From NCBI GenBank assembly GCA_964549305.1, contig CAZJVM010000010.1, positions 18,613-52,547 of the forward strand: a stretch of 33,935 nt of DNA, read 5' to 3'. The stretch comes from an uncultured bacterium (GTDB lineage: Bacteria > Schekmanbacteria > GWA2-38-11 > J061). Below are positions 1,177 through 26,064 of this stretch, one piece after another (position 1 is the first letter of the stretch; every line of letters starts with the position of its first letter). The notes under the pieces are model-generated. The model was not told the DNA's origin. It saw nothing but the letters and a program-made list of their open reading frames with translations, and made no database searches. The translations under genes were made by a program, and so were the position numbers.

Positions 1177-2322
1177 TTAGAGGTTCATCTTAGCCAATTT
1201 TTCATAGATTTCAGAAAATTTATCAAGCATATAATCTGGCGAAAATTTTTCCGATACCTTTTTTTTTGCTTCTATTCCCAGTTTATCCCTCAATGCCTCT
1301 TCGCAGATAAGTGATTTTAGGGCGTTGGCAAGAGCGTCTGAGTCGGCAGGGGGGATGAGAATGCCGTTGACTTTGTCACATATGAATTCAGGTATGCCGG
1401 AAACATTGGAAGCTATAACGGGCTTTTCGAAATATGCCGCTTCGAGCATTGTGACGGGAAATCCTTCTGAAAGCGAAGGCGACACCACGATGTCGGATGC
1501 CTGCATTATATTTCCCATATCGTCGCGAAATCCGCAGAATAGGCACTTTTCGTATATCCCCCTCTCGCGGCATCTTTCCTCGAGACTTTCCCTTTCCGGA
1601 CCGTCTCCGGCAAAAAGGAAATAAGTATTGTCGTAATTTTTCCTAATCTTAGATGCGGCATCGATGAAACATTCGAATCCTTTCTGTTTCGTCATTCTTC
1701 CTGCCTGAGTGATCACAACGGCTGATTGGGGAATGGAAAGGGATTTTCTCGTCTCTGCGGCAGATTGTGTGGCTTCGATTGACCGGAAATCAATACAGGG
1801 ATAAACGGTTTCTATTATTCCCTCCGGTATTCCGTAATCGCGGATGAGACTCTGCCTGAGATAGTCCGACACCGTTACGATGAGGGATACCTTTGAAGCG
1901 GTATATTTTTCTATTTTCATATAGATGCTTTTCCTTAAGGCGCTTACGGGATAATCTTTTATGGAGTTGTGAACCGTGGACATAACAGAGGGAATTCCCG
2001 CTCGAAACGATGCTAACCGTCCGTAAAAATTAGACCTTGCGCCGTGGGTGTGGACTATTTGAGGCGATGAGCTTTTAAGATATTCGCTCAGGCGTGATAA
2101 AACCTCGCGGCTTAAAAGACTTCTGTTTATCTCTATAACCTTTGGTGAATATCCGAGTGCCTGAAGTCTCTCGTAAAGCGCGCCCCTTTCAGGAAGGATG
2201 AAATCGAGAGTGAATCTTTGCCGGTCAAGATATTTCGCGAAAATAAGAAGATATTTTTCACCGCCTCCTATTCCGCCTGCGGATATGATGTGGGTTATCT
2301 TTATTTTATCCATTTTTCCCAA
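1177..2322 (-). CDS. Glycosyltransferase family 4 (GT-B); ATG at 2313 is an alternative start
   Basis: IGGGEK N-terminal loop, VHTH, GRMTKQKG and the EGFPVTMLEA (EX7E) motif. Confidence 0.9.
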   Translation of the reverse strand: MGKMDKIKITHIISAGGIGGGEKYLLIFAKYLDRQRFTLDFILPERGALYERLQALGYSPKVIEINRSLLSREVLSRLSEYLKSSSPQIVHTHGARSNFYGRLASFRAGIPSVMSTVHNSIKDYPVSALRKSIYMKIEKYTASKVSLIVTVSDYLRQSLIRDYGIPEGIIETVYPCIDFRSIEATQSAAETRKSLSIPQSAVVITQAGRMTKQKGFECFIDAASKIRKNYDNTYFLFAGDGPERESLEERCRERGIYEKCLFCGFRDDMGNIMQASDIVVSPSLSEGFPVTMLEAAYFEKPVIASNVSGIPEFICDKVNGILIPPADSDALANALKSLICEEALRDKLGIEAKKKVSEKFSPDYMLDKFSEIYEKLAKMNL

Positions 2323-3493
2323 TGATTTTAAAAATTCCTTCGCAGAATTCCTTTGCGCGGTTTTCCCATCTGTGTTTTTCCAGAATCGCCTGCCTACCGC
2401 TTTTCCCCATTTTTACCGCTCTTTCCGGGTCTGCGAGAAGGTCGGTGATCCTTTGTGCCAATTCTTCCGTTTTTTCGTGGTCAACTGATATGCCCGCGTC
2501 GATTGATTCCACAAACTCTCCGTATTCGGGACAGTTGCTTGCGACAACAGGTCTTTCGCAGGAAAGATATTCGAACACCTTCATCGGTGACCCGTAATTG
2601 CTTCGTATCATCTTGAAGAACGCGATGCACAGGTCAAAAGCGGATATATAGCGCGGAATCTGTTCATAGCTTACAAATCCGGTCCAGATTATATATTCCC
2701 CTATGCCAAGCTCTCTGCTTAATTTCTCGAGCGGATTTCTCATCTCGCCGTCTCCCACTATGAGAAAGCGTATGTTGCCGTTTCTGCTTATAATTTCAGG
2801 AGCTGCATGGAAAAGATATTCAAGCCCGTGCCAGGCGCACAGACTGCCCACGAATCCAATGTAGGTGTGCCGGGGGTCAAGTTTAAGCTCTTTGCGCGCC
2901 TGATCTTTTTCTATGGGGTGGAACAGACTCGTATCAACGGCGTCCCTGATTACGGAAGTGCGCTCATATTTTTTCCCGCGGGAAGTTACGGCATAGTTTC
3001 TTACAGGTTCTGAGACTGCAGAAACAAAGTCGCACAGAGAGACATTCATATTCCACGAAAGCTCTGCGATGAAAGATGTTAAAGGGTTTCTTCCAAGCGC
3101 CTTCATATCTTCGCCAATGATGCTGTTAAGATAGAGAAGGACGGGGATTTTGAGAAGTTTCAGAGTGGGAATAATTGTCGGGATGCCGTAAAGGTCAAAG
3201 CAGATGACGGCATCGGGTTTTTTTCGGGCAAAGTGCTTCATTAAAAAGAAGGGCGCGAGAGTTATCAGACTGAGGGGTCTTAGATATTCAATGTCAACGC
3301 GCGGCATATGGCACAATGGTAATTCTCGAAAATTATCCCCACCTGAGGTTTTGGGCGCAATCAATTCTATATTGTGTCCAAGGGATTTTAACGCCTTTGC
3401 AAAGTTGACTATCTGAATGCCCTCTGCGTTGAGCGACGACATGTCAACATGACAGATTACGCTTATGTCAAGAGACGGGCGTTTCTTATCCAT
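2306..3493 (-). CDS. Glycosyltransferase family 4; likely start ATG 3493 (MDKKRPS), overlapping the upstream flippase stop
   Basis: FVGSLCAWHG, LIVGDG and SPMKVFEYLSCERPVVAS. The ORF-track extension to 3589 lies inside the upstream gene. Confidence 0.85.
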   Translation of the reverse strand: MDKKRPSLDISVICHVDMSSLNAEGIQIVNFAKALKSLGHNIELIAPKTSGGDNFRELPLCHMPRVDIEYLRPLSLITLAPFFLMKHFARKKPDAVICFDLYGIPTIIPTLKLLKIPVLLYLNSIIGEDMKALGRNPLTSFIAELSWNMNVSLCDFVSAVSEPVRNYAVTSRGKKYERTSVIRDAVDTSLFHPIEKDQARKELKLDPRHTYIGFVGSLCAWHGLEYLFHAAPEIISRNGNIRFLIVGDGEMRNPLEKLSRELGIGEYIIWTGFVSYEQIPRYISAFDLCIAFFKMIRSNYGSPMKVFEYLSCERPVVASNCPEYGEFVESIDAGISVDHEKTEELAQRITDLLADPERAVKMGKSGRQAILEKHRWENRAKEFCEGIFKIIGKNG

Positions 3494-5078
3494 TTTTTGC
3501 GCTTCCCGAAAGTTTCCCCGCGACACTTTGCCGCAGAGAGGTGAATATAGAGGCAATCTTCTCTTTCTCTTTTCTGTCAAGAAAGGCACTGTTTTTTATA
3601 ATGAGATAGTATGCCCCTGTAAAGATAATACCTTCTATTACGAAATAGAGCGCTTTCCCGGAGAAGCTTTCATAATGGTAAATTCTGCTGAATATGAGGC
3701 AGGGGACAAGGCAGATTGCCGATAAAACAAATGAGTGAAGGACCATTTTAAAAAATATCGCCATCGGTTTTTTATAGTGCGAGTGAAATTTGAATACGAG
3801 AAAAGCCGAGTAAAATAAGAATGTTATCGCTGTAGCAATGACACAACCCGCAAGTCCGTATTTCATTATGAGTATGATGCTGAGCAGAATATTCACGATT
3901 GAAGCGTAAACGCTCGTTTCCATTTCGAATTCCGGTTTGCCTATGCCTATGGAGACAACATTTGCTACGCCCGACAAGAGGTTGAAGTAGTATCCGGCGC
4001 ACATAACGAGAAGAACGATTTCAGCGGGAAGATAAGATTTTCCCAGCCATAATTCGAGGACTAAACGGGCATTCAGCGCAAGGAAAACGAAAAGCGGCGT
4101 GGTGAATATAAAAAGATATTTGGACGCTTTTATGTAAAGATTCCACACATCATTGGCGGTACGCGTCGAATCCACTTCGCTTGCCGCGGGAGTTATGGCG
4201 GAAACCATCAGCAGAGGGAAAGACCTTGCGATTGATGCAACGCGGTTTCCGATGTCATAGAAACCGATTGCCGCGGTGTTGAGGAAGTATCCGATAATAA
4301 ACCTGTCGGTCTGAAAATTTATGAGATACGCGATTTTTGCAACCTGCACCTTGTAGCCGAAGGAGAATATTTTTTTGAAGGTATTTCCGTCTATGCGTGA
4401 AGGCAATAATTTCATTTCAGGGAAAACCCTGTAGGCAAAGATTAAATAGAGAATAGCGCTCAGAAGCGCGAAGCCCACTTCGTTTAAAGCAAGCCCTCTA
4501 AGCCCGTATCCCGAGAGGAGGACGAATATTATTCCACCTGCGCGCGGTATCGATGCCGCGATTTTTATAAGATTGAGAACGCCCATTTTCTGGAATCCTT
4601 CAAAGAGTGAGCGCACGGGAGTTATGGCGCTTTGAAGACAGAAAGCGAGAATTCCGTAAATTAAGACTGAGCGCGTCTCGTCCATATACGGTGCCGGGAT
4701 TTTTAGAACAGAGAGAAAAAAATCCACGAGCAGATAGCAGGCGGCAAACTGCGCCGCGGCAAGGGGAAGGTAAAAGAGAAGTCCGTGGTTTATGATGTTG
4801 TTGATTTGCTCCGTTTCCTGTTTCGCCTTGTGCTCGGCAAGGTATTTCGTGAATGACCCTCCCGCGCCAAGGTCGAGAAGACTGAAGTAGCTTGTAACCG
4901 TAAACATAACCGCCCAGATGCCGAATTTCTCGGCGCCGAGAGTCCTGAATATAAAGGGGGTGAGAAAAAAATTGATGAGTATTTGGGAGAAGTTTCCCAT
5001 ATAATTATAGGCAGTGTTGCCAATAATTTTTTCAGATACAGATAAGTCTTTGTCCGACTTTTCGTTCCATTCGTCCAT
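3486..5078 (-). CDS. Wzx-type polysaccharide flippase (MOP superfamily)
   Basis: 530-aa multi-TM protein with TPFIFRTLGAEKFGIW, LLDLG and QTDRFIIGYFL...IGFY patterns typical of O-antigen/EPS flippases. Confidence 0.85.
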   Translation of the reverse strand: MDEWNEKSDKDLSVSEKIIGNTAYNYMGNFSQILINFFLTPFIFRTLGAEKFGIWAVMFTVTSYFSLLDLGAGGSFTKYLAEHKAKQETEQINNIINHGLLFYLPLAAAQFAACYLLVDFFLSVLKIPAPYMDETRSVLIYGILAFCLQSAITPVRSLFEGFQKMGVLNLIKIAASIPRAGGIIFVLLSGYGLRGLALNEVGFALLSAILYLIFAYRVFPEMKLLPSRIDGNTFKKIFSFGYKVQVAKIAYLINFQTDRFIIGYFLNTAAIGFYDIGNRVASIARSFPLLMVSAITPAASEVDSTRTANDVWNLYIKASKYLFIFTTPLFVFLALNARLVLELWLGKSYLPAEIVLLVMCAGYYFNLLSGVANVVSIGIGKPEFEMETSVYASIVNILLSIILIMKYGLAGCVIATAITFLFYSAFLVFKFHSHYKKPMAIFFKMVLHSFVLSAICLVPCLIFSRIYHYESFSGKALYFVIEGIIFTGAYYLIIKNSAFLDRKEKEKIASIFTSLRQSVAGKLSGSAKNG

Positions 5079-5112
5079 ATTTAGTCTGATAATATTTTTA
5101 TTGGGTATGAAG

Positions 5113-5141
5113 TATAATGTATAATAACATTACATAATGTT
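5113..5141. promoter_or_regulatory. Tandem TATAAT hexamers followed by the palindrome AACATTA-CA-TAATGTT in the divergent wzx/FkbM spacer
   Basis: TATAAT at 5113-5118 and 5120-5125; perfect 7-bp inverted repeat at 5126-5141. Confidence 0.45.
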
Positions 5142-5218
5142 GCTGAAAAAGTTTTATTTGAAGTTGAAGCAATGATAACATTTTATTAACAAGCCAATCG
5201 GCATATGGGGACAGTATT

Positions 5219-6106
5219 TTGGTAAATGCTGAAAAATCAAATATTTCGCCTGCCCGGGAAAAATCAGGAAAAACGTTCAGGGAAATATACGAAAAAACTC
5301 CCCACTTCAGGGGAAAGTGGCAGATTTTCAATCTCTTCGGCAAAAGCTTGAGAGGGAAGGGGTATGAGACGGTAATAACATTTGATATGGGGCAGAAGAT
5401 ATGTCTGTGTCTCGATGACTGGATTCCCTATCAGATTTTTCTTACCGGATATTACGCAATTGAATACAGGCATACTATTTATTTCAGAAACCTCATCAAG
5501 AAGGGAATTGTTTTTTTTGATGTGGGCGCGAATATCGGCTATTACACCCTGCAGGCATCTCCCCGGACTGGATTTGAGGGGAAGGTTTTTTCTTTTGAGC
5601 CGGTGAGCGCTACATACGGGAAGCTCGTTGAAAATATCTCCTTGAATTCACTGAAAAATGTTTTTCCTCAGAAGCTTATAGTCTATGAAAAGGAGTGCGA
5701 ATTGGAGATATTGCCCGGCGATTGCGGTAATACGGGCTCGGCGAAGCTTGCCCCGGCAAATTCCGCTTCCCGGTCAGACGCGGAAAAGGTCAGGGCTGTA
5801 ACTCTCGACTCTTTCGTGAAAGAGAACGGAGTGGATAGGATTGATGTCGTGAAGATTGATGTGGAGGGGAGCGAGTTTTCAGTGCTTCGCGGAATGAAGA
5901 ATATCCTTTCCGAAATGAATCCCAAACTACTCATTGAACTTACCGAGCATACCCTGAAGGCGCGAGGCACATCGTGCGAAGAGGTTATAGCATTTTTGCG
6001 CGGTTTCGGATACGAACCTTATAGCGTCAGATCAGGTGAAGAGAAACCGGCAGATATTTCAAAGATAAGGCGTGAATCCCTCGTGCTTTTCAAAAAGGAA
6101 GAGTAG
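5219..6106 (+). CDS. FkbM-family methyltransferase
   Basis: FFDVGANIGYY, VFSFEP and VVKIDVEGSEFSVLRG. Confidence 0.9.
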   Translation: MVNAEKSNISPAREKSGKTFREIYEKTPHFRGKWQIFNLFGKSLRGKGYETVITFDMGQKICLCLDDWIPYQIFLTGYYAIEYRHTIYFRNLIKKGIVFFDVGANIGYYTLQASPRTGFEGKVFSFEPVSATYGKLVENISLNSLKNVFPQKLIVYEKECELEILPGDCGNTGSAKLAPANSASRSDAEKVRAVTLDSFVKENGVDRIDVVKIDVEGSEFSVLRGMKNILSEMNPKLLIELTEHTLKARGTSCEEVIAFLRGFGYEPYSVRSGEEKPADISKIRRESLVLFKKEE

Positions 6107-6130
6107 GGGGGGTGGGGGAAAGAAAAAGTT

Positions 6131-7615
6131 TTATTCCTCCTTTTCTTTTTTTATTCCCGAAATGACAAGCAATTCTTCTAACTGCTTTTTGTTAAAAATC
6201 GCGCTTAAAAGGAGATATATGGCTATTCCCGAAATCACGCACAAAGTGAATGTTATGCCTTCTTCACTATCGTGAGGGAAAAGGGATTTTATAAAGAGAA
6301 GCGAGAAGGCCATAAGGACGCTGTTTGCGAATGAAGGCGCGAGGGTTTTCGCCAGTTGTAAGACTTTCAGGTTTATGAGGCGAAAGGGTATGGCAAACTG
6401 CGGATATGAAAGGAGTAATACTGCGATTGCGTATCCTCCGGCAACTCCCGTTATGCCCCAGCGAAGTCCCATTATGAAAACGGCTATTAACAGCAATCCT
6501 GTGCCCACGCCCCAGCGAAACATCCAGTCGGTACGCCCCTTTGCCTGATAAATCGCGCCCACCGTCGTGCCGATTGATTGAAAAAGCCCCACAGGCGCGA
6601 GTATCATAATGAGCAGGATTACCGCCTCCCATTTCGCGCCGAAGACTGTCAGTACGAATGGTTTGGCGAGGATGAAAACTCCTGCCATCAGAGGAAAGGA
6701 TATGAACCCGATTGTTGCCGCGACCTTGAGATAGATTTCGCCGAAGCGCCTGTTGTCATCCTGTATGCTCGAATAGACAGGAAACATAACACGCCCTATT
6801 ACGGCGGATATGTTTTGAAGGGGAAAGAGGAGTATGCGGTAAGCAAGGGTGTAATAACCGAGATTTTCGGCGCCGAGATACCTGCCTATCAAAAAATAGT
6901 CGGCGTTGCGGGAGAAGTAGTTGAAGATGCTGAACCCCGTGAGATTTAAGCTGTAACTGCTCACCGATTTTACTTCGCGCCAGCGGAAAATAAGACTGGG
7001 GCGCCAACGGCTTGAAAACCAGAGAAGTATTGTAGTTACCGTGACGAGGGTCAATGACTGGACTACGAGACTCCATACTCCGCCACCTAAAAGCGCGAAT
7101 CCTATGCCCGCAAAGGAAGAACAGAATACTGCCGTTATTTCTATTTTCCCCAGTGCGCGGAAATTGAGGGACCTTTCCATCAGCGATTGGTGTAAAATGC
7201 TCACACCTGAAATGGCAAAGCTTACAGAGAGTACACGAAGCACTGGCACTACCTGAGGGTTTTTGTATAACAGTCCGCCTAAAGGGGCACCCAGAAAAAC
7301 GACTGCCGTAGAAAGGAAACCGAATCCCGCGTTAAGCCAGAAAATGCTCGAGAGAAGCTCTTTAGATAAATCCTGTTTTTGAATGATTGCCGCAGATGTG
7401 CCAAGGTCTTTGAAAATAGCTATGAAACCAGTAACGACCACTGCCATTCCAAGAAGCCCGAAATCAGAGGGCGCAAGAAGACGGGCGAGAATTAGCGTCG
7501 TTATGAGTTGCGCGCCCTGACGGAAAACCTGCGACAAGGTTGACCACTTTACGCCAGTGACGGAACGGTTTTTTAAGTCTGTCGAAATTTTGTTATTACT
7601 GCTGTATAAATCCAT
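6131..7615 (-). CDS. WzxC-like lipopolysaccharide/EPS flippase
   Basis: GVKWS...ILARLLAPSDFGL, DLGTSAAIIQ and NADYFLIGRYLGAENLGYY resemble colanic-acid WzxC-type flippases. Confidence 0.88.
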   Translation of the reverse strand: MDLYSSNNKISTDLKNRSVTGVKWSTLSQVFRQGAQLITTLILARLLAPSDFGLLGMAVVVTGFIAIFKDLGTSAAIIQKQDLSKELLSSIFWLNAGFGFLSTAVVFLGAPLGGLLYKNPQVVPVLRVLSVSFAISGVSILHQSLMERSLNFRALGKIEITAVFCSSFAGIGFALLGGGVWSLVVQSLTLVTVTTILLWFSSRWRPSLIFRWREVKSVSSYSLNLTGFSIFNYFSRNADYFLIGRYLGAENLGYYTLAYRILLFPLQNISAVIGRVMFPVYSSIQDDNRRFGEIYLKVAATIGFISFPLMAGVFILAKPFVLTVFGAKWEAVILLIMILAPVGLFQSIGTTVGAIYQAKGRTDWMFRWGVGTGLLLIAVFIMGLRWGITGVAGGYAIAVLLLSYPQFAIPFRLINLKVLQLAKTLAPSFANSVLMAFSLLFIKSLFPHDSEEGITFTLCVISGIAIYLLLSAIFNKKQLEELLVISGIKKEKEE

Positions 7616-7645
7616 ATTTTTTTATAAGGTTTTTGTGACAGGAGT

Positions 7646-8863
7646 TCATAAAATGCTTTCGTAAATATTTAAAAGTCTCTTGTTGAGACTTTTTATATCA
7701 TAGTTTTCTTCCACGAATTTTCTTCCCGATTTTCCCGATTGCGCGCGGATTGCGGGATTTTCTACAAGGAATTCTATTTTTTCCGCAATGGCATCGACAT
7801 CCTTTTGAGGTACGAGAAAAGCCGAGTTGTCCCGCGATAGTGTTTCCGGAATTCCTCCGATTGAGGAAGCTATTACGGGAATGCCCGATGACTGCGCCTC
7901 GAGAAGCACCAGTCCCTGTCCCTCCGTTGCGCCGTTTTCCCCGATTATGCTTGGAAGAATGAATATATGCGCTTTTTCGTAGAGATTCAGCACTTCCGAT
8001 TCGTCTGCCAATCCCGTAAAAAAGACATTTTTTTCAAGCCCCGATTCCGCTGTCAATGATTTGAGTTTTTCCTTCAAGGGTCCGTCTCCCGCAACAGTGT
8101 ACCGTATCTGCGGATATTTTTTTACTGCCTTTGCAATCGCTCTTATGGCGTATTCGTGCCCTTTTTCCTCTACAAGTCGTCCCACGGTCAGAATGTTTAC
8201 GGATTCTCCTTCCTTATTTTTTTTCTCACAGAATTTGAATTTTTCCGTGTTTACTCCAACAGGAAGAATGGTTATCTTTTCCCCGTCGCATCCCAACTCA
8301 ACCACTTTGTTTTTGATGAAGTTTGTGTTTGCGGTGAAGATGTCACCATTTTTGAATAATTCCTTATATACATCTCCGCCTGCTGTTTGGGGATAGCAGT
8401 TAACGTCGTATCCGTGAAAGCTTGTAAGATATTTTCCTGCAACCCCCGCCTTTTTCAAAAACATTCCGAAAAGTCCGTTAGTGCCGAAGTGACAGTGTAT
8501 GATGTCGAATTTTTTCTCGATGAAGGGGACTGTTTTATACAGAAGATTCAAAGAGAGAGCGTTTTTCCCGTAACTAAAAAAATTCAGCGCCCTGAGGATT
8601 TTCAAAGGCGCTTTCGGAAAATTTACCGAGATTAAGGATATTGCCTTGAGTATCCTTATTATCCTGTTGCAGGGAGGAGTCAGATAGGTGACTTTCTCCA
8701 TAAGGCGGTATTTTTCAATGTCCTGATGCCTCTTGCCTTCATTGGGATTGTATTGGGCTAATATTTCAACTTCCTGCCCCAAGTCTATTAGCCCCGTAAT
8801 CTGATTCAGAATAAATGTTTCAGACAGAGTGGGAAATCCGTTTACTATAAAAGCTATTTTCAT
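7646..8863 (-). CDS. GT4 glycosyltransferase, WcaL/AmsK-like
   Basis: FPTLSETFILNQITGLID, HCHFG, SFHGYD, VGRLVEEKG and EGQGLVLLEA. Confidence 0.88.
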   Translation of the reverse strand: MKIAFIVNGFPTLSETFILNQITGLIDLGQEVEILAQYNPNEGKRHQDIEKYRLMEKVTYLTPPCNRIIRILKAISLISVNFPKAPLKILRALNFFSYGKNALSLNLLYKTVPFIEKKFDIIHCHFGTNGLFGMFLKKAGVAGKYLTSFHGYDVNCYPQTAGGDVYKELFKNGDIFTANTNFIKNKVVELGCDGEKITILPVGVNTEKFKFCEKKNKEGESVNILTVGRLVEEKGHEYAIRAIAKAVKKYPQIRYTVAGDGPLKEKLKSLTAESGLEKNVFFTGLADESEVLNLYEKAHIFILPSIIGENGATEGQGLVLLEAQSSGIPVIASSIGGIPETLSRDNSAFLVPQKDVDAIAEKIEFLVENPAIRAQSGKSGRKFVEENYDIKSLNKRLLNIYESIL

Positions 8864-8911
8864 ATTAAAATGATTATGGCAGATTTTGGCCGGTAAGAAT
8901 AGCTGAAGTCA

Positions 8912-9130
8912 TCAGCTGAATTTTTTCCCCTTCTTCTTCCTGCATTTCTTCAGCCTTTTTTCAACGGATTCATTATGCTTGGGGCATTTCGGCTTGTGCT
9001 TTTTTTTGTCGGCAAAGGCATCGTCTTCAAGTGAAATAATCTGAGGGCTTACCCATACCTTAAGCACTGCCGCAGTTGCGGCTACTGTGGCGACTTTTTT
9101 GCCTTTTTTAAGAAAATCTCTTCTTTTCAT
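8912..9130 (-). CDS. 72-aa putative RiPP precursor / twin-arginine peptide
   Basis: AAGGAG SD at 9137-9142; starts 12 nt after the rSAM stop; double TGA stop. Contains KRRDFLK, a hydrophobic stretch, WVSPQI, AFA and a Lys-rich two-Cys tail. Confidence 0.75.
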   Translation of the reverse strand: MKRRDFLKKGKKVATVAATAAVLKVWVSPQIISLEDDAFADKKKHKPKCPKHNESVEKRLKKCRKKKGKKFS

Positions 9131-9142
9131 TTTTTACTCCTT

Positions 9143-10138
9143 TTAAATTGCCGGGCAAAGGGGATATTCGCTCCATATGTTTTCCGTAAGCGCGTATGCC
9201 AGTGCCCTGCATCCGCCCTTGCAATCGGCTTTTTCTTTACAGCTTGCGCATCTTCCGCCAAGTTTTTTTGAGTCTAAATAATTTCCGAATTTTGAAATGT
9301 CTTTCCAGCACTGCCTGAGACCTTTTTCAGGGACACTGTTTCCTTCCTTCCAGAGTGCTGATAGCGTGCAGGGATAAAGATTGCCGTCAAAGGTTATCGT
9401 AGAGCAAAAGGAGTTTTCGTCGCCCAGTGAGCATTCCGCTGCCCTGCCGTCTTCGAGCATTGAAAGGGTAAAGCTCGAGAATTCCACTTCCCCCGGCTTT
9501 TCCCGCGAATTTATTTCGTCAACAAAAGCTTCAAGCTTTGAAAGCATTTCCGTGGGAGGTTTGAGAAGATTGTAATTAGCTATTGCACGTCCCATAGGAA
9601 TCACTTCGTCGAGATCGATTTTTTTTATTCCCATACTTTTCAGCATTTCTGTCATTGCCGGAATGTGGGCTATATTTTGGGCGGTAATAGTTGTTTTCGT
9701 GTGAAGCGAAATATCCTTTTTAAGGCAGATGTTCAGGGCATCGATGATTTTATTGAAAGATTTGCCCATCATCTTATCGTTGATGAGCGCGTTGGGACCG
9801 TTAATGCTTATTTGAATGTCGCGAAGTCCGCAACCTATGAGCTTATCGATTATTTTATCATCAATCAGAGTGCCGTTTGTGGTGAGTTCGACGGCGATAT
9901 TATTTTTTCTGAGTTTTTCTATTATTGTAAATACTTCAGGTTCGCAAAGAGGTTCACCTCCCGTTAGAATCACTTTCAGAACTTTACCCCCGATTATTTC
10001 ATCCAGTATAAAAAACCTCTCTTTCTGAGAGAGAATGGCATCTCTTCCTCTTCCGGCATCAACAAGGCAAAAGGAGCAGGAAAGATTGCATTTTTTTGTA
10101 AATGACCAGGTTACTTCAATGGGGGTTTCTAAAATCAT
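9143..10138 (-). CDS. Radical SAM/SPASM-domain protein (PqqE/MftC-like peptide maturase class)
   Basis: CNLSCSFC (CxxxCxxC), LTGGEP and TTNGT. C-terminal SPASM cysteines C..GNLYPC..CASCKEKADCKGGCR..C. Confidence 0.9.
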   Translation of the reverse strand: MILETPIEVTWSFTKKCNLSCSFCLVDAGRGRDAILSQKERFFILDEIIGGKVLKVILTGGEPLCEPEVFTIIEKLRKNNIAVELTTNGTLIDDKIIDKLIGCGLRDIQISINGPNALINDKMMGKSFNKIIDALNICLKKDISLHTKTTITAQNIAHIPAMTEMLKSMGIKKIDLDEVIPMGRAIANYNLLKPPTEMLSKLEAFVDEINSREKPGEVEFSSFTLSMLEDGRAAECSLGDENSFCSTITFDGNLYPCTLSALWKEGNSVPEKGLRQCWKDISKFGNYLDSKKLGGRCASCKEKADCKGGCRALAYALTENIWSEYPLCPAI

Positions 10139-10143
10139 TTTCG

Positions 10144-10425
10144 TTACGTTAGAGAGACAATCTTTTTTTCCGCTAAATTTTCAATGAAAGCGATTACTTC
10201 CTTTTCTATTACGGCGGAATCTCCTTCGAACTGTTTTACGGTTTCTTCCGTTATTTCCCTGACACTTAGCATTCCGTCGCATAATTGCCAGATAAGAGTG
10301 CCTGTTTCATTAAGAAGATAAGGTTCGCCTTCTTTGTCATCGAATATGACCGCTTTCCCTTTCTCCGTGCGGGACAAAATGTTGTCTCGGGGAACCGGTA
10401 TTTTCTCTGATATCTTATTTTTCAT
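10144..10425 (-). CDS. PqqD-family protein / RiPP recognition element
   Basis: 93 aa with LNETGTLIWQLCDG..SVREI and EVIAFIENLAEKKIV, the typical PqqD pattern. Confidence 0.9.
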   Translation of the reverse strand: MKNKISEKIPVPRDNILSRTEKGKAVIFDDKEGEPYLLNETGTLIWQLCDGMLSVREITEETVKQFEGDSAVIEKEVIAFIENLAEKKIVSLT

Positions 10426-11392
10426 AGGTTTTCTCTAAAAGCCCTTTTACCGCAAAGGGAATCTCTTCGAAATGTTTTTCCAAATTATATTTTATTTCAT
10501 AGAGAGGCACCCTGTCGAATATAAAATTTGCGATTTCAAAAGCGCTCCTGTTGTTTCTCCTGATTTGGGCGTTAATACCTTTTTCAATTTCATCTGGAGT
10601 CATCAATTCCGAAAGTGAAACAACGCGGTAGAGAGACGATATTTCATCAAGATGATTAATTCTCACCCTTTCAAAATCCGGGGAGTTTCTTAAAATGGCA
10701 AAAAGGCAGAGGGGGCTTTTTTTTGCTATGCAATTTCGGTTTATCTCGCGCGGGTCGAGTATATAGCCCTTTTCATAAACAGCTTCATATTGTTTTACGT
10801 TATAGGATTTCAGGAATTGTTTTCCTTCAATACTTTTCGCGAAACTTTCTCCAAGTCGGAGGTTTCTCGGGAAGGAGAGTATATGAGGTGTTTCGCCTTC
10901 TATCTCAACAAGTGAATCTTCGTCGGAAAGATAGGAAAATCCCTCTTTTATGAAAGACGCGGAAATCGTTGTTTTCCCCGCTCCTGAGTCGCCGGATAAA
11001 AGCGCGCCCCTGCCGAAAAGCGCTACTGATGCTGAATGAAGCGATGCCGCGCGCCTGCGAGATGAAATGACGTATCGCGCGAGATATCCTATTAGCGACA
11101 GGGTCACAAGCACTGCGTCGTCGCGCGAGAATTTATCCCTGCCTGTGACGATTCCTGAAAGGTTGTTTAAATCGGCGTGACTGTAGATTGTGTCGGTAAT
11201 CTGTTCGTGTTTTTTTATACTTTGCTTTGCTCGGGAAGAAGATTCAGTTGATTGAAAATGTACCGAAACTTCGGGAGTCGAAGGTTTTGATTCAAATTCC
11301 CTGATTTCTTCTTTAACGCACCGGGCAACTGTCGCGGAATCAGAGCGAAGTCTGACTATGATGCCGTGCATATTGAAAAAAAATTCTTTCAT
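10415..11392 (-). CDS. HPr kinase-related P-loop kinase
   Basis: LHSASV, Walker A GDSGAGKTT and YLSDED. Lacks the HprK N-terminal domain and overlaps the PqqD start by 11 nt. Confidence 0.8.
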   Translation of the reverse strand: MKEFFFNMHGIIVRLRSDSATVARCVKEEIREFESKPSTPEVSVHFQSTESSSRAKQSIKKHEQITDTIYSHADLNNLSGIVTGRDKFSRDDAVLVTLSLIGYLARYVISSRRRAASLHSASVALFGRGALLSGDSGAGKTTISASFIKEGFSYLSDEDSLVEIEGETPHILSFPRNLRLGESFAKSIEGKQFLKSYNVKQYEAVYEKGYILDPREINRNCIAKKSPLCLFAILRNSPDFERVRINHLDEISSLYRVVSLSELMTPDEIEKGINAQIRRNNRSAFEIANFIFDRVPLYEIKYNLEKHFEEIPFAVKGLLEKTYEK

Positions 11393-11492
11393 TTATTGCC
11401 TCATTTGAATTTGTATATTGAGATATATACCAGTATCAGGTTAACTTGTCAGGTAATTAGAATTAACTTTTAAGTGCTGTGTTTTTCTTCTT

Positions 11493-12665
11493 ATGAAAAC
11501 TTTTTTCATAGAAAAGGGGAGTCCCGAATATTCCTTTTTAATGGGCGCGCTCAGAGGTTTTATGCGTCATAACGATTCAGAGGAATACGGCAGGCGCGCG
11601 GGAGAATTGAACTGGCAGGGGATAATCGATGAAGCCGATATGCTCGATGTTTTCCCTTTCCTTTACGGGGCGATTGCGAATTCTCCTTTTAAAAATGACG
11701 TGCCCGCGCACCTTTTTTTAATGATTGAAAAGGAATATTACGCCAATCTGTCAAGGAATCTCCGGCTTTTAAAGGAAGCGAAACAAATTGCGCAAAGTGC
11801 CGGGGATGAAGGCGCGCGACCGCTTCTTCTTGGCGGAATATCTCTTCTGGGCTCGGTTTATGAGGATTACGGATTAAGGCATATCGGCGATATTGATATG
11901 CTGGTCAGCGACAAGGACAAAAATAAAGTTTTTCGAATTCTCCGAAAAAAAGGATATTCCCCCTTCGGAAAATACGCGGATTCCTTTTGCCGCGATGATA
12001 TTTCCATTGATATTAAAACAGATATAATAAGCGCCGGGAGAATTGCTTCAAGAAAGGCGGTTTTCCCCGTAAGTGACAGCTTTTGTTTTGAGGGGAGATT
12101 GTCACACTGTGAAATAAAGGAAGCGGACATTCTCGCCGCGCCGTGGCAGTTGATTGAATCTTCCCTTCACCTTTTCAAGCATTCCTTCTCGAGAATTATG
12201 TGGAGTATCGATATTGCCGCGATTATAAGAAAATATTCCTGCGAAGAATTTTATTCCCGCGTAATATCACTTGCGGAGTCAAACGGTGTGCATCTGCCTC
12301 TCTATTACTGCCTTAAATACGCTGACGATCTTAGGCTTGCAAAGGTTGATGGGGAAGTGCTTGAAACCCTGAAGCGCGGTTTTAGGGAAAAGTGGTTTGG
12401 AAGAAGGATTTATTCCATGCTTTCTGAAGGCAGGGGCGCGGAGCAGATATCGGAAATTCTCGCAATGCAGGTTAAATGCGGAATTTCTGCAAAGTTCAAA
12501 TTTTTCTTTGAATCGTTGTTTCCGCGAAAAAGAATAATGAAGGGAATCTATCCGAAATGTCCCGTTTCTATTATTTATGCCGCCTATATTCCGCGATTCT
12601 TTTCAATGTTGATTAAATTTTTTTCACTTTCCCTTCGCGCTGCGACCCATCGAAAAGGCGGATAA
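11493..12665 (+). CDS. Uncharacterised nucleotidyltransferase (NTP_transf_5-like)
   Basis: Helical N-terminus (LNWQGIIDEA..VFPFLY), Y...RN, and the catalytic-type motif GISLLGSVYEDYGLRHIGDIDMLV. Confidence 0.8.
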   Translation: MKTFFIEKGSPEYSFLMGALRGFMRHNDSEEYGRRAGELNWQGIIDEADMLDVFPFLYGAIANSPFKNDVPAHLFLMIEKEYYANLSRNLRLLKEAKQIAQSAGDEGARPLLLGGISLLGSVYEDYGLRHIGDIDMLVSDKDKNKVFRILRKKGYSPFGKYADSFCRDDISIDIKTDIISAGRIASRKAVFPVSDSFCFEGRLSHCEIKEADILAAPWQLIESSLHLFKHSFSRIMWSIDIAAIIRKYSCEEFYSRVISLAESNGVHLPLYYCLKYADDLRLAKVDGEVLETLKRGFREKWFGRRIYSMLSEGRGAEQISEILAMQVKCGISAKFKFFFESLFPRKRIMKGIYPKCPVSIIYAAYIPRFFSMLIKFFSLSLRAATHRKGG

Positions 12666-12681
12666 AATTTCTTTTTGGCTT

Positions 12682-13959
12682 TCAGGAAATTTTGTCGAGG
12701 GCTTTCCTGCCGATGTCTTTTCTGAAATGCATATCCTTGAAGCGTATTTTCGAAACCGCGTCATAAGCTTTGTCTATGGCATCGGGTATGGAATTTCCCA
12801 GCGCTGTTACGCCGAGCACTCTTCCGCCTGATGTGAGATATCTGCCTGAATCTGATTTCGTACCGGCATGAAATACCTTTACGCCTTCAATCTTTTCCGC
12901 CTCGCCAAGCCCTTCTATCTCTTTTCCCTTTTCGTATTTTTCCGGATATCCTCCCGATGCAAGGACTACGCAGACCGATGATTCCTCCTTCCATAGAGGG
13001 GTAACCTCAGATGCCTTTCCGTCTATGCACGCTTCAATGATGTCCATGATATCGCTTTCAAGGCGCATAAGCACCGGTTGCGCTTCAGGGTCGCCGAAAC
13101 GCACATTGAATTCGAGCACCGAGGGTTCGCCGTCTTTAATCATAAGCCCCGCGTAGAGTATTCCCCTGAAAGGCGCGCCTTCGGAGTTCATTCCCCATAT
13201 TACAGGTTTTATGACTGAGTCTGTTATACGTTTTTCAACGTCTTTGGTTACTACGGGCGCGGGGGAATAGGCACCCATACCGCCCGTATTAAGCCCCATA
13301 TCGTTGTCAAGCGCCCTTTTGTGGTCCTGTGATGAAGGCATTGGGATTATGTTTTCCCCGTCGCTGAAGACAAGAAAAGACGCTTCTTCTCCCTGAAGAA
13401 ATTCTTCGATTAGTATCTTGTTCCCCGCGTCGCCGAATTCTCTGGTTTCCATTGTTTTTGACAGGGCATCTTTAATTTCATCTCTGCTGTTGCAAATCAA
13501 AACACCTTTTCCCGCGGCAAGTCCGTCCGCCTTTACGACGCAGGGAAGTGAGATTTTACAGGCAAAGTCCATTGCATCGTTTATGTTGTCAAAGCTTTCA
13601 TATTTTGCCGTGGGTATATTGTGTCTTTTCATAAATTCTTTAGAAAATAGTTTGCTGCTTTCAAGCTGTGCCGCTTTTTGGGAAGGACCGAAAACCCGAA
13701 TGTTTTTTTCTTCCATAGCATCGACGATTCCGAGAGACAGAGGAACTTCAGGTCCCACGACAACAATGTCTATTTCGTTTTTCAGAGTAAATTCCGTCAG
13801 TTCGTTTATGGCTGAAGCATCGATGCTTACGCATTCGGCTTCCTTTGAAATACCGCCGTTTCCCGGCGCGCAAAAAACCTTTGATACCCGCTTTGAGCGG
13901 GATATTTTCCATACAAGAGCGTGTTCTCTTCCTCCGGAACCTACAACAAGTACCTTCAT
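12682..13959 (-). CDS. purD: Phosphoribosylamine-glycine ligase
   Basis: MKVLVVGSGGREHAL, KADGLAAGKGV, NTGGMGAYSP and EFNVRFGDPE. Confidence 0.98.
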   Translation of the reverse strand: MKVLVVGSGGREHALVWKISRSKRVSKVFCAPGNGGISKEAECVSIDASAINELTEFTLKNEIDIVVVGPEVPLSLGIVDAMEEKNIRVFGPSQKAAQLESSKLFSKEFMKRHNIPTAKYESFDNINDAMDFACKISLPCVVKADGLAAGKGVLICNSRDEIKDALSKTMETREFGDAGNKILIEEFLQGEEASFLVFSDGENIIPMPSSQDHKRALDNDMGLNTGGMGAYSPAPVVTKDVEKRITDSVIKPVIWGMNSEGAPFRGILYAGLMIKDGEPSVLEFNVRFGDPEAQPVLMRLESDIMDIIEACIDGKASEVTPLWKEESSVCVVLASGGYPEKYEKGKEIEGLGEAEKIEGVKVFHAGTKSDSGRYLTSGGRVLGVTALGNSIPDAIDKAYDAVSKIRFKDMHFRKDIGRKALDKIS

Positions 13960-14098
13960 AGTATAATTTTCCTCCGGTCTTTATTATTCATTTATGAAGC
14001 GAATACAAAAATTTGTCGGCAAAGAAGCTTGTTTTTTTTATAACTGAAAATTATATTGTTATCAACAGGTTATATTTTTACCTTGCGAGGTGCTAAAA

Positions 14099-14800
14099 AT
14101 GGGAATAATAACGTTTTCCAAGGAGTTTGCCAGCGGTGGAAGAGAAGTTGGCGAAAATGTGGCAAAGAAGCTGTTTTTTTCCTATTTTGACAGAGAAATC
14201 GTCAAGCAGGTTGCCCTGAAATCAAAAGTGCCCGAAATTGCTGTGCAGGAATATGACCAGGATATGTACAATCCAATGCGCGTTTTTTTCTCCCGTGTAA
14301 TGGACCCCGTATTAAGCAGCAGCAGATACAAAAGCCTTGCCATTCCCGCGGGAAGCGAATCTGCTAAAAAGAAAAACCGGAAAAGGTTCAAGCCCTATGA
14401 GTGTGAAGTTGATGGCTGGCTTGACAGCGACATTTTCAAGGAAATGATAGAGTCTTTCATACTGGAAATTGCAGATAAAGAAGATGCCGTTATCGTTGGC
14501 AGAGGCGCGCAATGCATACTTAAAGGCGTAGCAGGAGTTTTTCACGTGAGAATAGTTTCTCCCGTAGATTACAGGGTCGAAAGGGCGGTTAGGGAGAAAA
14601 GGATTATGCCCGGGGACGCAAAAAAGACAATCCTTGATATTGACAGGAGAAGAAGAGCATATATTAAAAACAACTATGATTATGATTGGGAAGACCCTCT
14701 TCTATACCACCTGATAATCAATACAGGCTGTATCGACTTGCAGAGTGCGACAGATATTATAGTCGATGCCTACGGGAAATATTCTTCTATGAGGAATTAA
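14099..14800 (+). CDS. Cytidylate kinase-like family protein; likely start ATG 14099
   Basis: IITFSKEFASGGREVG, VIVGRGAQCIL and DPLLYHLIINT. GAGGTG SD precedes the ATG. Confidence 0.8.
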   Translation: MGIITFSKEFASGGREVGENVAKKLFFSYFDREIVKQVALKSKVPEIAVQEYDQDMYNPMRVFFSRVMDPVLSSSRYKSLAIPAGSESAKKKNRKRFKPYECEVDGWLDSDIFKEMIESFILEIADKEDAVIVGRGAQCILKGVAGVFHVRIVSPVDYRVERAVREKRIMPGDAKKTILDIDRRRRAYIKNNYDYDWEDPLLYHLIINTGCIDLQSATDIIVDAYGKYSSMRN

Positions 14801-16071
14801 CCCTTTGCTCCCTTCTTTGATGCTCTCAAAATCAAATATGTAATGAGGACGCCTCCTATGAAAGCGATAATGAATATCACTATTATAGGGACCTCTTCGT
14901 GGGAAGTTTCAATCTCGGCACTGTTGTGCGTGTTACTTGCCATTTCGACTTCCATTGTCTTGAGGGAGATTACGGGAGTCTGCATCTGATACTTCAGGAT
15001 ATTTTCGACCTTGTATTTTTTCAAACCCGAGGGCTTCTTGAATTCAAATGTTTCCTTTCTTGCTTCTTTCGGGGCGATTCTGTTGTCGCTTAAAACCCTT
15101 GCCGCATAGAAAAAGATATCCTTTATGTTCTCGAGTTCTTTTCCCGCTTCGTCAACGAGGACTTTTCTGTATGCACGGGACTGACTCGACACTACTTCGT
15201 TTTTTTCGTTTAAAAGATTTACTTCAAGTATGATTTTTCTTGAAGGTATTCCGGTGGGAATTTTATGTCCCGACTCCCTGTTGAATACGGTGGTGTTTAC
15301 TATGATTTTATCTCCGTTGTCTTCAATTTTTGACGAGATTGTGGCTGCTTTATTGAGCTTAATCTGTGAATGTCCTCCGAAAACGGAATGGTCTTTTGCA
15401 AAATTGTTTGTTTTCTTTACATCGGGATTTACATCGTTAACACCGAACATTTCCGGCATATGGCAATTCTGACACTTTATACCTTCCTTGCTGTATGAGC
15501 TTTCCTTCCATTCTGAGTAAGTGCCGAGAATCGTTACGCCGTTTTTCCCCTTCATTTCGTGGCAGGAACCGCATATTTTAGCAGTTTTATGGACTTCAGA
15601 TTCTTTTATTTTATGCGCGGGCGAAGATATGTTGTCGAAAGGTCCTCTCATTACATTGCCCGGGTCATTCGATATGGTAGGAATTGCCGTCTCCATATTG
15701 ACATTGGTAATTGTATGGCAGAACGTGCAGGTAATACCTTCCGATGATATATCCGCTTTTAATTCGTAATCTTCCGTTCTTCTCGTTGTGGGACTGTGGC
15801 ACTGAAGGCAGAATTTCCTTGCCTCATCGCCCTTGTCTTTTATCGCTTCCATAAAAGAAACTTCAAAAATCGGGTCTGAAATCGCCGCCGCGTGCATCGA
15901 GGCATTCCAGTTTTTGTAAATATCTGTGTGGCAGTTTTTACAAATATTGCTCGATGTAAAATCCAGACGGTTTACTTTTAAATTCACTGCCTCTGAAATA
16001 AAAGAAAAAGAAGTGATAAAAAATAAAATGCTGAAGAAAACTGCATTTACCCCCCCCCTGCTACGGAACAT
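14797..16071 (-). CDS. Membrane-anchored pentaheme c-type cytochrome
   Basis: Five CxxCH motifs (CKNCH, CLQCH, CTFCH, CGSCH, CQNCH), N-terminal signal peptide, GHKIPTG motif, C-terminal TM helix with basic tail, AAGGAGG SD. Confidence 0.88.
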   Translation of the reverse strand: MFRSRGGVNAVFFSILFFITSFSFISEAVNLKVNRLDFTSSNICKNCHTDIYKNWNASMHAAAISDPIFEVSFMEAIKDKGDEARKFCLQCHSPTTRRTEDYELKADISSEGITCTFCHTITNVNMETAIPTISNDPGNVMRGPFDNISSPAHKIKESEVHKTAKICGSCHEMKGKNGVTILGTYSEWKESSYSKEGIKCQNCHMPEMFGVNDVNPDVKKTNNFAKDHSVFGGHSQIKLNKAATISSKIEDNGDKIIVNTTVFNRESGHKIPTGIPSRKIILEVNLLNEKNEVVSSQSRAYRKVLVDEAGKELENIKDIFFYAARVLSDNRIAPKEARKETFEFKKPSGLKKYKVENILKYQMQTPVISLKTMEVEMASNTHNSAEIETSHEEVPIIVIFIIAFIGGVLITYLILRASKKGAKG

Positions 16072-25428: not shown

Positions 25429-26064
25429 ATGTTCATAAAAGAAATATTTTCGAGCATACAGGGCGAATCCTCCCATATCGGTTATCCCTGCTTTTTTATC
25501 AGGACATCCGGGTGCAATCTTCGCTGTAAATGGTGCGACACCGTTTATGCCTATGAGGGGGGGGAGGAATATTCCATTGAACTCCTTGAATCGCAAGTTA
25601 AGAAATCTCCTTATCCTCTCGTATCTCTGACGGGAGGTGAACCTCTTATTCAGAATGATGCCGTTAAATTTCTTTCACGCATTGCGGAAATCAAAAATAA
25701 GACCGTTATTCTTGAAACAAACGGAAGCCAAAGCATAAAAGATATTGACGAAAGAATTGTTAAAGTGATTGATGTAAAATGCCCCTCGAGCGGAGAGGAG
25801 AAAAGCTTTTTCTATGAAAACCTCGATTACATAGGCGAAAATGATGAAGTTAAGTTTGTTATTGCGGACAGGCGGGATTATGACTGGAGTTGTGGCTTTA
25901 TTCGTAAAAACGGGATAGAATCCCCTTCAATCCTCTTTTCTCCTATGGCGGATTCGCTAAAGCCGTCAAGTCTTGCAAAGTGGATACTCGATGACAATAT
26001 GAATGTGCGGTTTCAGATTCAGCTTCATAAGATAATCTGGCCCGGCAGAGAGAGGGGATTTTAG
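25429..26064 (+). CDS. queE: 7-carboxy-7-deazaguanine synthase (radical SAM)
   Basis: EIFSSIQGE, GCNLRCKWCDT, TGGEPL, LETNG and QIQLHK; lies between queD and queC. Confidence 0.95.
   Translation: MFIKEIFSSIQGESSHIGYPCFFIRTSGCNLRCKWCDTVYAYEGGEEYSIELLESQVKKSPYPLVSLTGGEPLIQNDAVKFLSRIAEIKNKTVILETNGSQSIKDIDERIVKVIDVKCPSSGEEKSFFYENLDYIGENDEVKFVIADRRDYDWSCGFIRKNGIESPSILFSPMADSLKPSSLAKWILDDNMNVRFQIQLHKIIWPGRERGF

Follow-up and report, generated by a model that had tools for sequence, protein, structure and literature searches.

A conserved gene cassette of an uncultured Schekmanbacteria genome, related to those of phosphorylated lasso and linear peptides, joins a SPASM radical SAM enzyme to an HprK-like protein

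We analyzed a stretch of 33,935 nucleotides (nt) from an uncultured bacterium of the Schekmanbacteria (assembly GCA_964549305.1, contig CAZJVM010000010.1, positions 18,613 to 52,547 of the forward strand). This whole stretch is called the window, and coordinates without a contig or locus name are counted from its first nucleotide. Between positions 8912 and 12665 the window carries five genes that very probably form a cassette for the maturation of a peptide that is made on ribosomes and modified after translation (RiPP). Four of them are packed on the minus strand and encode an HprK-like protein, a protein of the PqqD family, a radical S-adenosylmethionine (SAM) enzyme and a small peptide, while the fifth, a nucleotidyltransferase gene, diverges from this operon. 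The features of the cassette are the following.

10415-11392, minus strand: HprK-like gene, 325 amino acids (aa); the final 11 nt are shared with the beginning of the PqqD gene
10144-10425, minus strand: gene for a discrete RiPP recognition element of the PqqD family, 93 aa
9143-10138, minus strand: radical SAM gene with a full SPASM domain, 331 aa
8912-9130, minus strand: predicted precursor peptide gene, 72 codons and a stop codon
11493-12665, plus strand: nucleotidyltransferase gene of the NTP_transf_5 family (PF14907), 390 aa, divergent from the operon
11393-11492, no strand: divergent intergenic spacer of 100 bp, presumed promoter region of both transcription units
9071-9130, minus strand: putative twin-arginine-type signal, residues 1-20 of the peptide (MKRRDFLK, KGKK, then the hydrophobic VATVAATA, the end of which reads A-x-A)
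9044-9055, minus strand: predicted leader docking motif W26-V-S-P29, with W and P invariant
8942-8986, minus strand: core segment from C49 to C63, both cysteines invariant
8915-8917, minus strand: S72, a C-terminal serine that is a candidate for phosphorylation (terminal Ser or Thr in 46 of 46 distinct peptides)

An earlier reading of this DNA, the original prediction, had described four tightly packed minus-strand genes beside a divergent NTP_transf_5 gene, and all of its coordinates and spacings agree with ours base for base. The HprK-like and PqqD genes overlap by 11 nt (10415-10425), and gaps of only 5 nt (10139-10143) and 12 nt (9131-9142) separate the radical SAM gene from the PqqD gene and from the small open reading frame (ORF), respectively. 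The strong Shine-Dalgarno site attributed to this 72-aa ORF was also found, as AAAGGAG six bases 5' of its ATG. A consensus scan of the spacer 11393-11492 gave no convincing sigma-70 site.

This arrangement exceeds chance and recurs in 31 loci of several phyla. The radical SAM protein is itself rare: only 16 proteins at E<1e-40 were retrieved among 5.8 billion, it is present in 3 of 41 related genomes, including that of the window, and its only named relative at 65% identity is labelled Candidatus Schekmanbacteria. With a profile built from these 16 proteins, close loci were found in species genomes (15) and on metagenome contigs (13), which make up the comparison set of 31 together with the window and the loci G001 and G002. 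Their hosts are labelled Schekmanbacteria, Nitrospirota, 'Cytophagia', Zhuqueibacterota or Mcinerneyibacteriota, or are unclassified. The components were counted by iterated searches of the 31 loci with the window proteins, on contigs many of which are cut. A PqqD protein was found in 25 loci, and four of the six others are contigs whose start falls inside the radical SAM gene or just ahead of it. The HprK-like protein occurs in 20 loci, directly beside the PqqD or the radical SAM gene, the PF14907 transferase in 14, a transglutaminase-fold protein resembling lasso B2 in 13, after the peptide gene, and a myxosortase-like CPBP protease in three.

The original prediction depended on a small peptide being encoded next to the radical SAM gene at homologous loci as well, and a homologous ORF with a W..P motif does adjoin this gene in 29 of the 31 loci. 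In 28 of them the peptide lies on the same strand, with its W codon placed between 20 nt upstream and 138 nt downstream of the radical SAM stop codon, while at L019 it is convergent and about 700 nt away. One of the two remaining contigs, L107, ends inside the radical SAM gene; the other is considered below. The 29 loci encode 26 distinct peptides, 25 of which end in Ser. When 25 distinct peptides were aligned, the only invariant columns were M1, W26, P29, C49, C63 and S72 (window numbering), and the leader followed the consensus K-x-W-x-x-P-x-h-x-x-L with an invariant W. A search of 1.84 billion representative proteins with the peptide profile gave 27 matches; three of them (P0045, P0049 and P0053) proved on reading to be long unrelated repeat proteins and were dropped. 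All 24 short matches display W-x-x-P near their start, 23 ending in Ser and one in Thr.

Pooling both sets gave 46 distinct peptides. Their last residue is Ser in 45 cases and Thr in one, which measures conservation and not independent events, the peptides being homologous; as a background, 111 of 1064 other small ORFs from the same loci end in Ser. The penultimate residue is Phe (29), Leu (14), Pro (2) or Gln (1). Each peptide contains 2-5 cysteines, the last one 6-12 residues from the end. The cores vary between clades from rich in lysine to near neutral; only W-x-x-P, at least two cysteines and the terminal Ser/Thr are constant. The classes into which the peptides fall match the clades of the radical SAM tree, and three classes besides the twin-arginine one each make up a single clade; since relatives share class labels, this agreement shows co-inheritance only. 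On these comparisons, the 72-aa product is the predicted substrate of the cassette. It consists of three parts, namely a clade-specific twin-arginine-type signal, a family-wide W26-x-x-P29 leader, and a very basic core with C49, C63 and S72. The original prediction had suggested looking for recurrent peptides of the type RRxFLK...WxxP. The second half of this motif is indeed found throughout the family, but the first half is limited to one clade (4 of 29 loci).

The 93-aa protein, which matches PF05402 (PqqD) with an E-value of 1.8e-15, resembles the recognition proteins of lasso peptides more than PqqD itself. A profile of 20 PqqD orthologues found its best matches in lasso B1 proteins, with E-values of 3.7e-13 for TbiB1, 3.3e-11 for 9x90_B (a deposited structure named 'lasso peptide biosynthesis PqqD family chaperone') and 8.5e-8 for TfuB1; PqqD proper (1.7e-6) and 9x8z_B (3.1e-5) came next. 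Among NCBIfam models, the window protein best matches those of the GeoRSP PqqD and of the lasso PqqD, both below their cut-offs, and it scores 38.5 against a cut-off of 46 with the PqqD equivalog model TIGR03859. According to an excerpt of PMC13381572 (Popov et al., Nat Commun 2026), W-x-x-P is the very motif bound by the recognition proteins of paeninodin-type lasso peptides.

The radical SAM protein matches PF04055 (Radical_SAM) with an E-value of 9.1e-24. Its C17-x3-C21-x2-C24 motif is invariant in the orthologues, as is, in 16 of them, the seven-cysteine pattern of a SPASM domain (C236, G252-x4-C257, C297-x2-C300-x5-C306-x3-C310 and C328). The Pfam SPASM model gave no match to the window protein and a weak match to two orthologues. 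An AlphaFold2 (AF2) model reached a pLDDT of 92.3; it was built on the library protein P0001, which is one residue off the window protein. Although reported as 100% identical to the 9143-10138 product, P0001 has a Leu where the window has an Arg. In Foldseek searches this model retrieved SuiB (1.5e-15), PqqE (1.6e-15), CteB (3.6e-14), anSME (1.2e-12) and SkfB (4.2e-12), with TM scores of 0.64-0.76 to the folds of SPASM peptide maturases. The sugar enzyme BlsE also ranked high among these structural matches.

Curated sequence models do not assign the enzyme to a known family. Its NCBIfam scores lie at about 95-135 bits, against cut-offs of 265-515 for the mycofactocin, AhbD, NirJ, PqqE and GeoRSP models. 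The original prediction supposed that the enzyme lies outside non-peptide families such as the haem synthesis enzymes, and this view holds: AhbD (TIGR04545, 132.9 against 500) and NirJ (TIGR04051, 125.6 against 515) are not reached, and the structural model fits peptide-modifying SPASM enzymes best. MftC of mycofactocin synthesis (TIGR03962, 134.7 against 265) and PqqE (TIGR02109, 122.4 against 381.35) are not reached either.

One could assume from the latter two models that the peptide gives rise to a small redox cofactor, as is the case for pyrroloquinoline quinone (PQQ) and mycofactocin, or to a cross-linked protein subunit like QhpC, and not to a secreted product. Indeed, the highest sequence scores are those of the mycofactocin enzyme and PqqE models, PqqE is also the highest-scoring sequence match in the PDB, and PqqA too starts with a W-x-K-P-type leader. 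In addition, the host is an anaerobe rich in multihaem cytochromes. On the other hand, no curated cut-off is attained, and no PqqB, PqqC, PqqF or other mycofactocin gene was found in the window. Precursors of the PQQ and mycofactocin type rely on Glu/Tyr or Val-Tyr residues, whereas the residues that are invariant here are cysteines and a terminal Ser. The cores moreover vary widely between clades, which is typical of secreted peptides and not of cofactors. We consider such a precursor role to be quite improbable.

The cassette heads a polysaccharide locus, of which the first two genes follow the peptide gene on the same strand.

7646-8863, minus strand: glycosyltransferase gene of family 4 (GT4), directly downstream of the peptide gene
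6131-7615, minus strand: MOP/Wzx flippase gene, downstream of the GT4 gene

Further on come a second flippase gene, two more GT4 genes and methyltransferase genes; purD lies on the other side of the cassette. The GT4 gene starts 48 nt after the peptide stop codon. A short hairpin spans this stop codon on the minus strand (8889-8918), the segment 8850-8925 folding at -12.8 kcal/mol (z -2.15), with no clear T-run behind it and no clear terminator between the two genes. Since this hairpin is weak and without a clear T-run, read-through into the GT4 gene seems likely, and the GT4 and flippase genes may be co-transcribed with the cassette. Glycosyltransferase, export, chain-length or flippase genes flank 7 of the 15 loci scanned with Pfam. 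At G002, from the same family, the cassette is instead flanked by response regulators, with the nearest GT4 gene about 8 kb off, and it keeps both kinase and transferase genes. The association with polysaccharide genes is thus frequent but not obligatory, which is also what has been described for paeninodins and for the linear polyphosphorylated peptides (LPPs) discussed below.

This setting, together with the presence of BlsE among the structural matches, would fit an enzyme that modifies a sugar belonging to the neighbouring polysaccharide locus, the small ORF being then an unrelated exported mini-protein. However, the peptide accompanies the enzyme in nearly all loci, in different phyla and whether polysaccharide genes are present or not, and most of these loci also possess the PqqD recognition element. 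Besides, BlsE-type enzymes have a twitch domain, shorter than the two-cluster SPASM domain, and it is the full two-cluster domain that is found here. Sugar tailoring appears to us the most far-fetched of the explanations considered.

In the HprK-like protein, 17 homologues agree on H119, G134, G139, K140 and E158; the features kept are a His, a loop of the form GxxGxGK[TS] and an acidic residue. A profile of the family matches HprK/P (1ko7) with an E-value of 1.5e-5 over a region spanning the His, the P-loop and the acidic segment. The AF2 model (pLDDT 92.4) retrieved an ATP-dependent phosphoenolpyruvate carboxykinase (ATP-PEPCK; E 1.7e-9, TM 0.62) and HprK/P (1knx; E 2.2e-8), two groups of enzymes that share one kinase fold. 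The protein is accordingly modelled with an HprK/PEPCK fold, while its matches to curated models cover only about 50-65 residues around the P-loop. The transferase matches PF14907 with an E-value of 9.1e-35 and 120.9 bits (cut-off 31.2 bits). Its G...DxD motif (G115, D133 and D135) does not vary among 14 homologues, and the same holds for H226 and D240.

The genome encodes four PF14907 proteins. One gene, on contig C15 (within L185, region 4180-9561), follows a 298-aa ORF without family match in a neighbourhood that contains GT2, GT4 and epimerase genes and lacks PqqD and radical SAM genes; another, on contig C53 (L184, 270-1805), encodes a 511-aa form near the contig end.

The small ORF scores 17.7 bits with the TIGR01409 model (TAT_signal_seq), the cut-off being 16.7 bits. 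A six-frame scan of the 2.94-Mb genome yielded eight places above this cut-off; the peptide is one of them and the seven others lie in ORFs of 258-1013 aa. The genome also encodes TatC (233.7 bits), a component of the twin-arginine translocation (Tat) system. About 20 extra residues precede the leader only in the window, G001, G002 and the metagenome contig L097, which form one clade of the radical SAM tree (support 100/99). In all four, the extension reads MKRR[DE]FL, then KGKK, then a hydrophobic run of Ala, Val and Thr, and A-x-A occurs five residues ahead of the W. Cleavage at this A-x-A by a signal peptidase would leave a start about where the other family members begin. We also considered that the extension might result from a mis-called start, an internal GTG being present four codons before the W. 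This was ruled out by conservation at the protein level, by an excess of synonymous changes (23-25 of the first 75 nt of the extension differ between genera, with 10-12 synonymous against 6-8 non-synonymous codon differences) and by its own Shine-Dalgarno sequence, AAGGAG being conserved before the ATG in the four loci. Judging from these sequences, we take the twin-arginine-like N-terminus to be real and translated.

This clade has no adjacent B2-like protease or exporter, and one would wonder whether the Tat-type signal takes their place. The clade of L012, L014 and L018 has neither protease nor exporter and no signal either, so that such a trade-off is suggestive but not clean.

A parallel can first be drawn with the tailored lasso peptides. 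In excerpts of PMC8498205, the linear precursor of paeninodin receives a phosphate on its C-terminal Ser from an HPr-kinase homologue, which has little regard for the remainder of the peptide, and a nucleotidyltransferase puts one or two hexoses on the Ser phosphate of pseudomycoidin. The window cassette shares with the systems of these phosphorylated or phosphoglycosylated peptides a discrete recognition element, a W-x-x-P leader, an HprK-like protein, a C-terminal Ser and a PF14907 transferase. With the paeninodin type, it also shares a frequent position in polysaccharide loci and, as seen above in 13 of the 31 loci, a B2-like protease after the peptide. The link to lasso-type tailoring made in the original prediction is thereby strengthened by the W-x-x-P leader, by a PqqD protein nearest to lasso B1 and by a C-terminal Ser in 45 of 46 peptides. 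As to the addition of a nucleotide to the peptide, which it had also envisaged, we judge the transfer of a sugar onto the phosphate likelier by analogy with pseudomycoidin.

The differences from lasso systems are equally clear. The cassette has no cyclase, possesses a SPASM radical SAM enzyme and has cysteines in its core; its family occurs outside Bacillota and Pseudomonadota, and the clade of the window lacks B2 and has the Tat-type N-terminus. No Asn_synthase domain (PF00733) was found in the cluster, nor, at E<=1e-4, in 96 neighbouring ORFs of 13 related loci, the sole match in the window being a QueC protein (26064-26783). No B2-like protease is adjacent to the cassette in the window, and a B2-like query from L098 found none in the same genome, where PF13471 only matches a fragment at the edge of contig C3. 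The replacement of lasso cyclase and peptidase by a SPASM enzyme, as originally proposed for this window, is thus borne out, with the qualification that a B2-like protease is present in 13 of the 31 related loci.

A closely related published family is that of the LPPs. As described in excerpts of PMC13381572, this family relies on a recognition element together with an HprK-like kinase and an NTP transferase, has in addition an archaeal-type signal peptidase as well as an MsbA-like pump, and contains no cyclase; its leader has Y-x-x-P where the paeninodin type has W-x-x-P, and its clusters are often embedded in capsule loci. LPPs and paeninodins are described there as restricted to Bacillota and with roles that are unknown (Popov et al.), and the Discussion leaves the reason for their placement in polysaccharide loci as an open question. 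The window cassette resembles them by its recognition element, HprK-like protein and NTP transferase, by the lack of a cyclase, by its polysaccharide setting and by a [Y/W]xxP leader. In contrast, LPPs are defined by a YxxPxVLxHQxIxFETxxS leader, a phosphorylated Ser3, an archaeal-type signal peptidase and an MsbA-like exporter, whereas the window cassette has a W leader, a terminal Ser and a radical SAM enzyme. The peptide of the window does not fit the LPP leader, no archaeal-type signal peptidase I was found in its cassette, and the window ORFs of 110 aa or more include no ABC transporter or MsbA-like exporter. PMC13381572 nowhere uses the words 'radical SAM'.

A second, paralogous cassette exists in the same genome on contig C28 (L183, covering 3000-16000 of the contig), at 1368-8952. 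It combines the LPP gene set with a radical SAM enzyme. Two MsbA-like ABC genes (1368-4906) face it, and it encodes an archaeal-type signal peptidase (TIGR02228, 59.9 bits against 51.85). A precursor peptide was looked for in this cassette and was not found.

Other likenesses concern the SPASM peptide maturases, such as CteB and SkfB, which form thioethers, SuiB and PqqE. The window enzyme has in common with them the CX3CX2C motif, the seven-cysteine SPASM domain and the fold, as well as a PqqD-type element and cysteines in the core. It differs in being coupled with a kinase-like protein and a nucleotidyltransferase and in satisfying no curated cut-off. In CteB and SuiB the recognition element forms the N-terminal domain, whereas it is a separate protein in the window. 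Finally, the GeoRSP system, the SynChlorMet cassette and the HPr-rel-A system of NCBIfam also associate a PqqD relative, one or more radical SAM/SPASM enzymes and an HprK-like or ScmC protein. All their models remained below cut-off, with scores of 96.5/400 (TIGR04303), 45.2/100 (TIGR04302), 82.6/400 (TIGR04250), 36.6/100 (TIGR04248), 16/125 (TIGR04249), 36.9/200 (TIGR04352) and 24.5/35 (TIGR04353), and a literature search on these three systems found no relevant paper.

Altogether, a defining feature is missing for each of the lasso, LPP, PQQ, mycofactocin, GeoRSP and SynChlorMet families, and the cassette belongs to none of them. The original prediction was therefore right to separate this combination from PQQ, mycofactocin and lasso systems, the PqqE, PqqD and MftC cut-offs being unattained and a cyclase lacking; the combination is nevertheless less isolated than it supposed, since the LPPs represent a closely related published family. 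Among publications judged mostly by title and abstract, and with PMC13381572 taken without its supplements, none was found in which the kinase/transferase module is combined with a radical SAM enzyme or a Tat signal. The cassette is a real, conserved and unstudied cousin of those of the phosphorylated lasso and linear peptides.

We propose the following scheme, which as a whole we favor with moderate confidence. The lasso-B1-like PqqD protein would bind the W-x-x-P leader and present the peptide to the SPASM radical SAM enzyme, which would cross-link the core in the cytoplasm. Thioethers involving C49 and C63 would be the most likely product, for which we see an even chance, and a C-C link could also be formed. 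The HprK-like kinase would then act on the terminal Ser, phosphorylation of Ser72 being fairly probable by analogy with paeninodin. The PF14907 transferase could extend this phosphate, probably with a sugar as in pseudomycoidin and possibly with the help of the flanking polysaccharide genes; that the transferase acts on the phosphate at all is more tentative. In the clade of the window, the mature peptide would leave by the Tat route, which would replace the B2-like protease and the exporters of other clades, and a signal peptidase would cut after A-x-A. Judging from the N-terminus, we put this export slightly short of an even bet. In this scheme the recognition step is the best founded because the comparative evidence for it is strong, the chemical steps being derived from analogy.

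Several observations weigh against this scheme, beginning with this reliance on analogy. The structural neighbours of the modelled radical SAM enzyme mix C-C cross-linkers (SuiB, PqqE), a sugar enzyme (BlsE) and thioether formers. The kinase-like protein reaches 24.6 bits with Hpr_kinase_C, for a cut-off of 33.3 bits, and attains no Pfam or NCBIfam cut-off. In the LPP family, LppK phosphorylates Ser3 of the core and not the C-terminus, and deletion of the LPP transferase had no visible effect in a heterologous host (both from excerpts of PMC13381572). The Tat match exceeds its threshold by only one bit, the RR motif is followed, unusually, by a charged KGKK stretch before a hydrophobic run that extends over about 11 residues only, and the feature is confined to four of the 29 loci and one of the 24 library clusters. 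As for the peptide, none was found beside the radical SAM gene of L025. At L106 (920-1015), a 32-residue Cys-free peptide ending in Gly is overlapped by the PqqD gene and is probably a decayed or mis-assembled copy. The more distant locus L058, which has an HprK-like gene, encodes a Cys-rich peptide with Y-x-x-P and a terminal Pro; this ruled out that a C-terminal Ser accompanies every HprK-containing cassette. Lastly, no HprK-like or transferase gene was found in the 5-13 kb examined around L012, L014 and L018, whose peptides keep a terminal K-F-S. The terminal Ser may there serve something besides the kinase, or the kinase may be located elsewhere in these genomes.

This clade is also the starting point of the most serious competing explanation, according to which peptide, PqqD and radical SAM proteins alone constitute the pathway, the kinase and PF14907 proteins serving, for example, the neighbouring polysaccharide or a lipid-linked sugar, and the terminal Ser being needed for the radical SAM step or a later processing. 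The Ser is indeed kept where both genes are missing. The lack of effect of the LPP transferase on its peptide in a heterologous host points the same way, as do the polysaccharide genes around 7 of the 15 scanned loci and the four PF14907 genes of the genome, one of them amid GT2, GT4 and epimerase genes and away from any PqqD or radical SAM gene. Yet the kinase gene overlaps the PqqD gene and, in 20 of the 31 loci, lies directly next to the latter or to the radical SAM gene, G002 retains both genes although it is flanked by response regulators, and published homologues of both enzymes act on peptides (PMC8498205 and PMC13381572, from excerpts). We hold such a division of labor to be rather improbable, and return to the scheme in which all five genes act on the peptide.

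Under this scheme, the cassette would join the SPASM cross-linkers to the kinase-nucleotidyltransferase module, two branches so far described apart, and this module would reach well beyond Bacillota into uncultured anaerobic Schekmanbacteria, Nitrospirota, Zhuqueibacterota and others. It would also offer a compact test case, with a peptide of 50-90 residues, five constant positions and three or four enzymes, and with natural variants devoid of kinase, protease or signal. A basic, phosphate-tagged and Tat-exported peptide would in addition provide a concrete hypothesis for the link with polysaccharide loci. To go one step further, the peptide could be cross-linked and phosphorylated in the cytoplasm, exported in finished form by Tat and trimmed by an ordinary signal peptidase. 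Outside the cell, this very basic peptide bearing a phosphate or a phosphosugar at its C-terminus would be attached to, or organize, the polysaccharide made by the adjoining genes. This extended proposal is speculative and, taken in its entirety, unlikely. If true, it would represent the first modified-peptide pathway that exports via Tat, needing no dedicated protease or ABC exporter, and it would open a direct way into the question of why such cassettes sit in slime and capsule loci.

Some additional observations were made around these genes. In the window itself, a 541-aa ORF (26780-28405) without Pfam match at E<=1e-5 comes right after queD/queE/queC-like genes. The myxosortase-family CPBP intramembrane protease mentioned above is encoded just upstream of the kinase gene at L016 (3925-4584), L022 (3879-4538) and L026 (3092-3751), with a Mrt_core score of 115.9 bits at L016 (cut-off 100 bits); it could act in processing or self-protection. 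Proteins with AAA_22 and/or HD_5 (HD-GYP-like) domains adjoin the cassette at L013 (1985-3953), L015 (1014-3353), L022 (9818-11050) and L023 (1736-3796). Genes for single-domain response regulators directly follow the precursor gene, often convergent with the cassette, in several clades, as at L011 (8606-9585), L012 (7200-8203), L014 (6588-7632), L015 (7327-7701) and L020 (7330-7704), and a histidine kinase gene takes this place at L018 (1748-3340).

Beyond the comparison set, more distant relatives of the radical SAM enzyme (23-30% identity) also lie beside HprK-like and PqqD genes, at L033, L041, L044, L045, L052, L058, L114, L123, L133, L136 and L148. The hosts belong to Acidobacteriota, Kiritimatiellae and Clostridia, and the PF14907 gene is mostly absent from these loci. 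As these relatives keep the three genes together, the trio of HprK-like, PqqD and radical SAM proteins defines a much wider set of cassettes.

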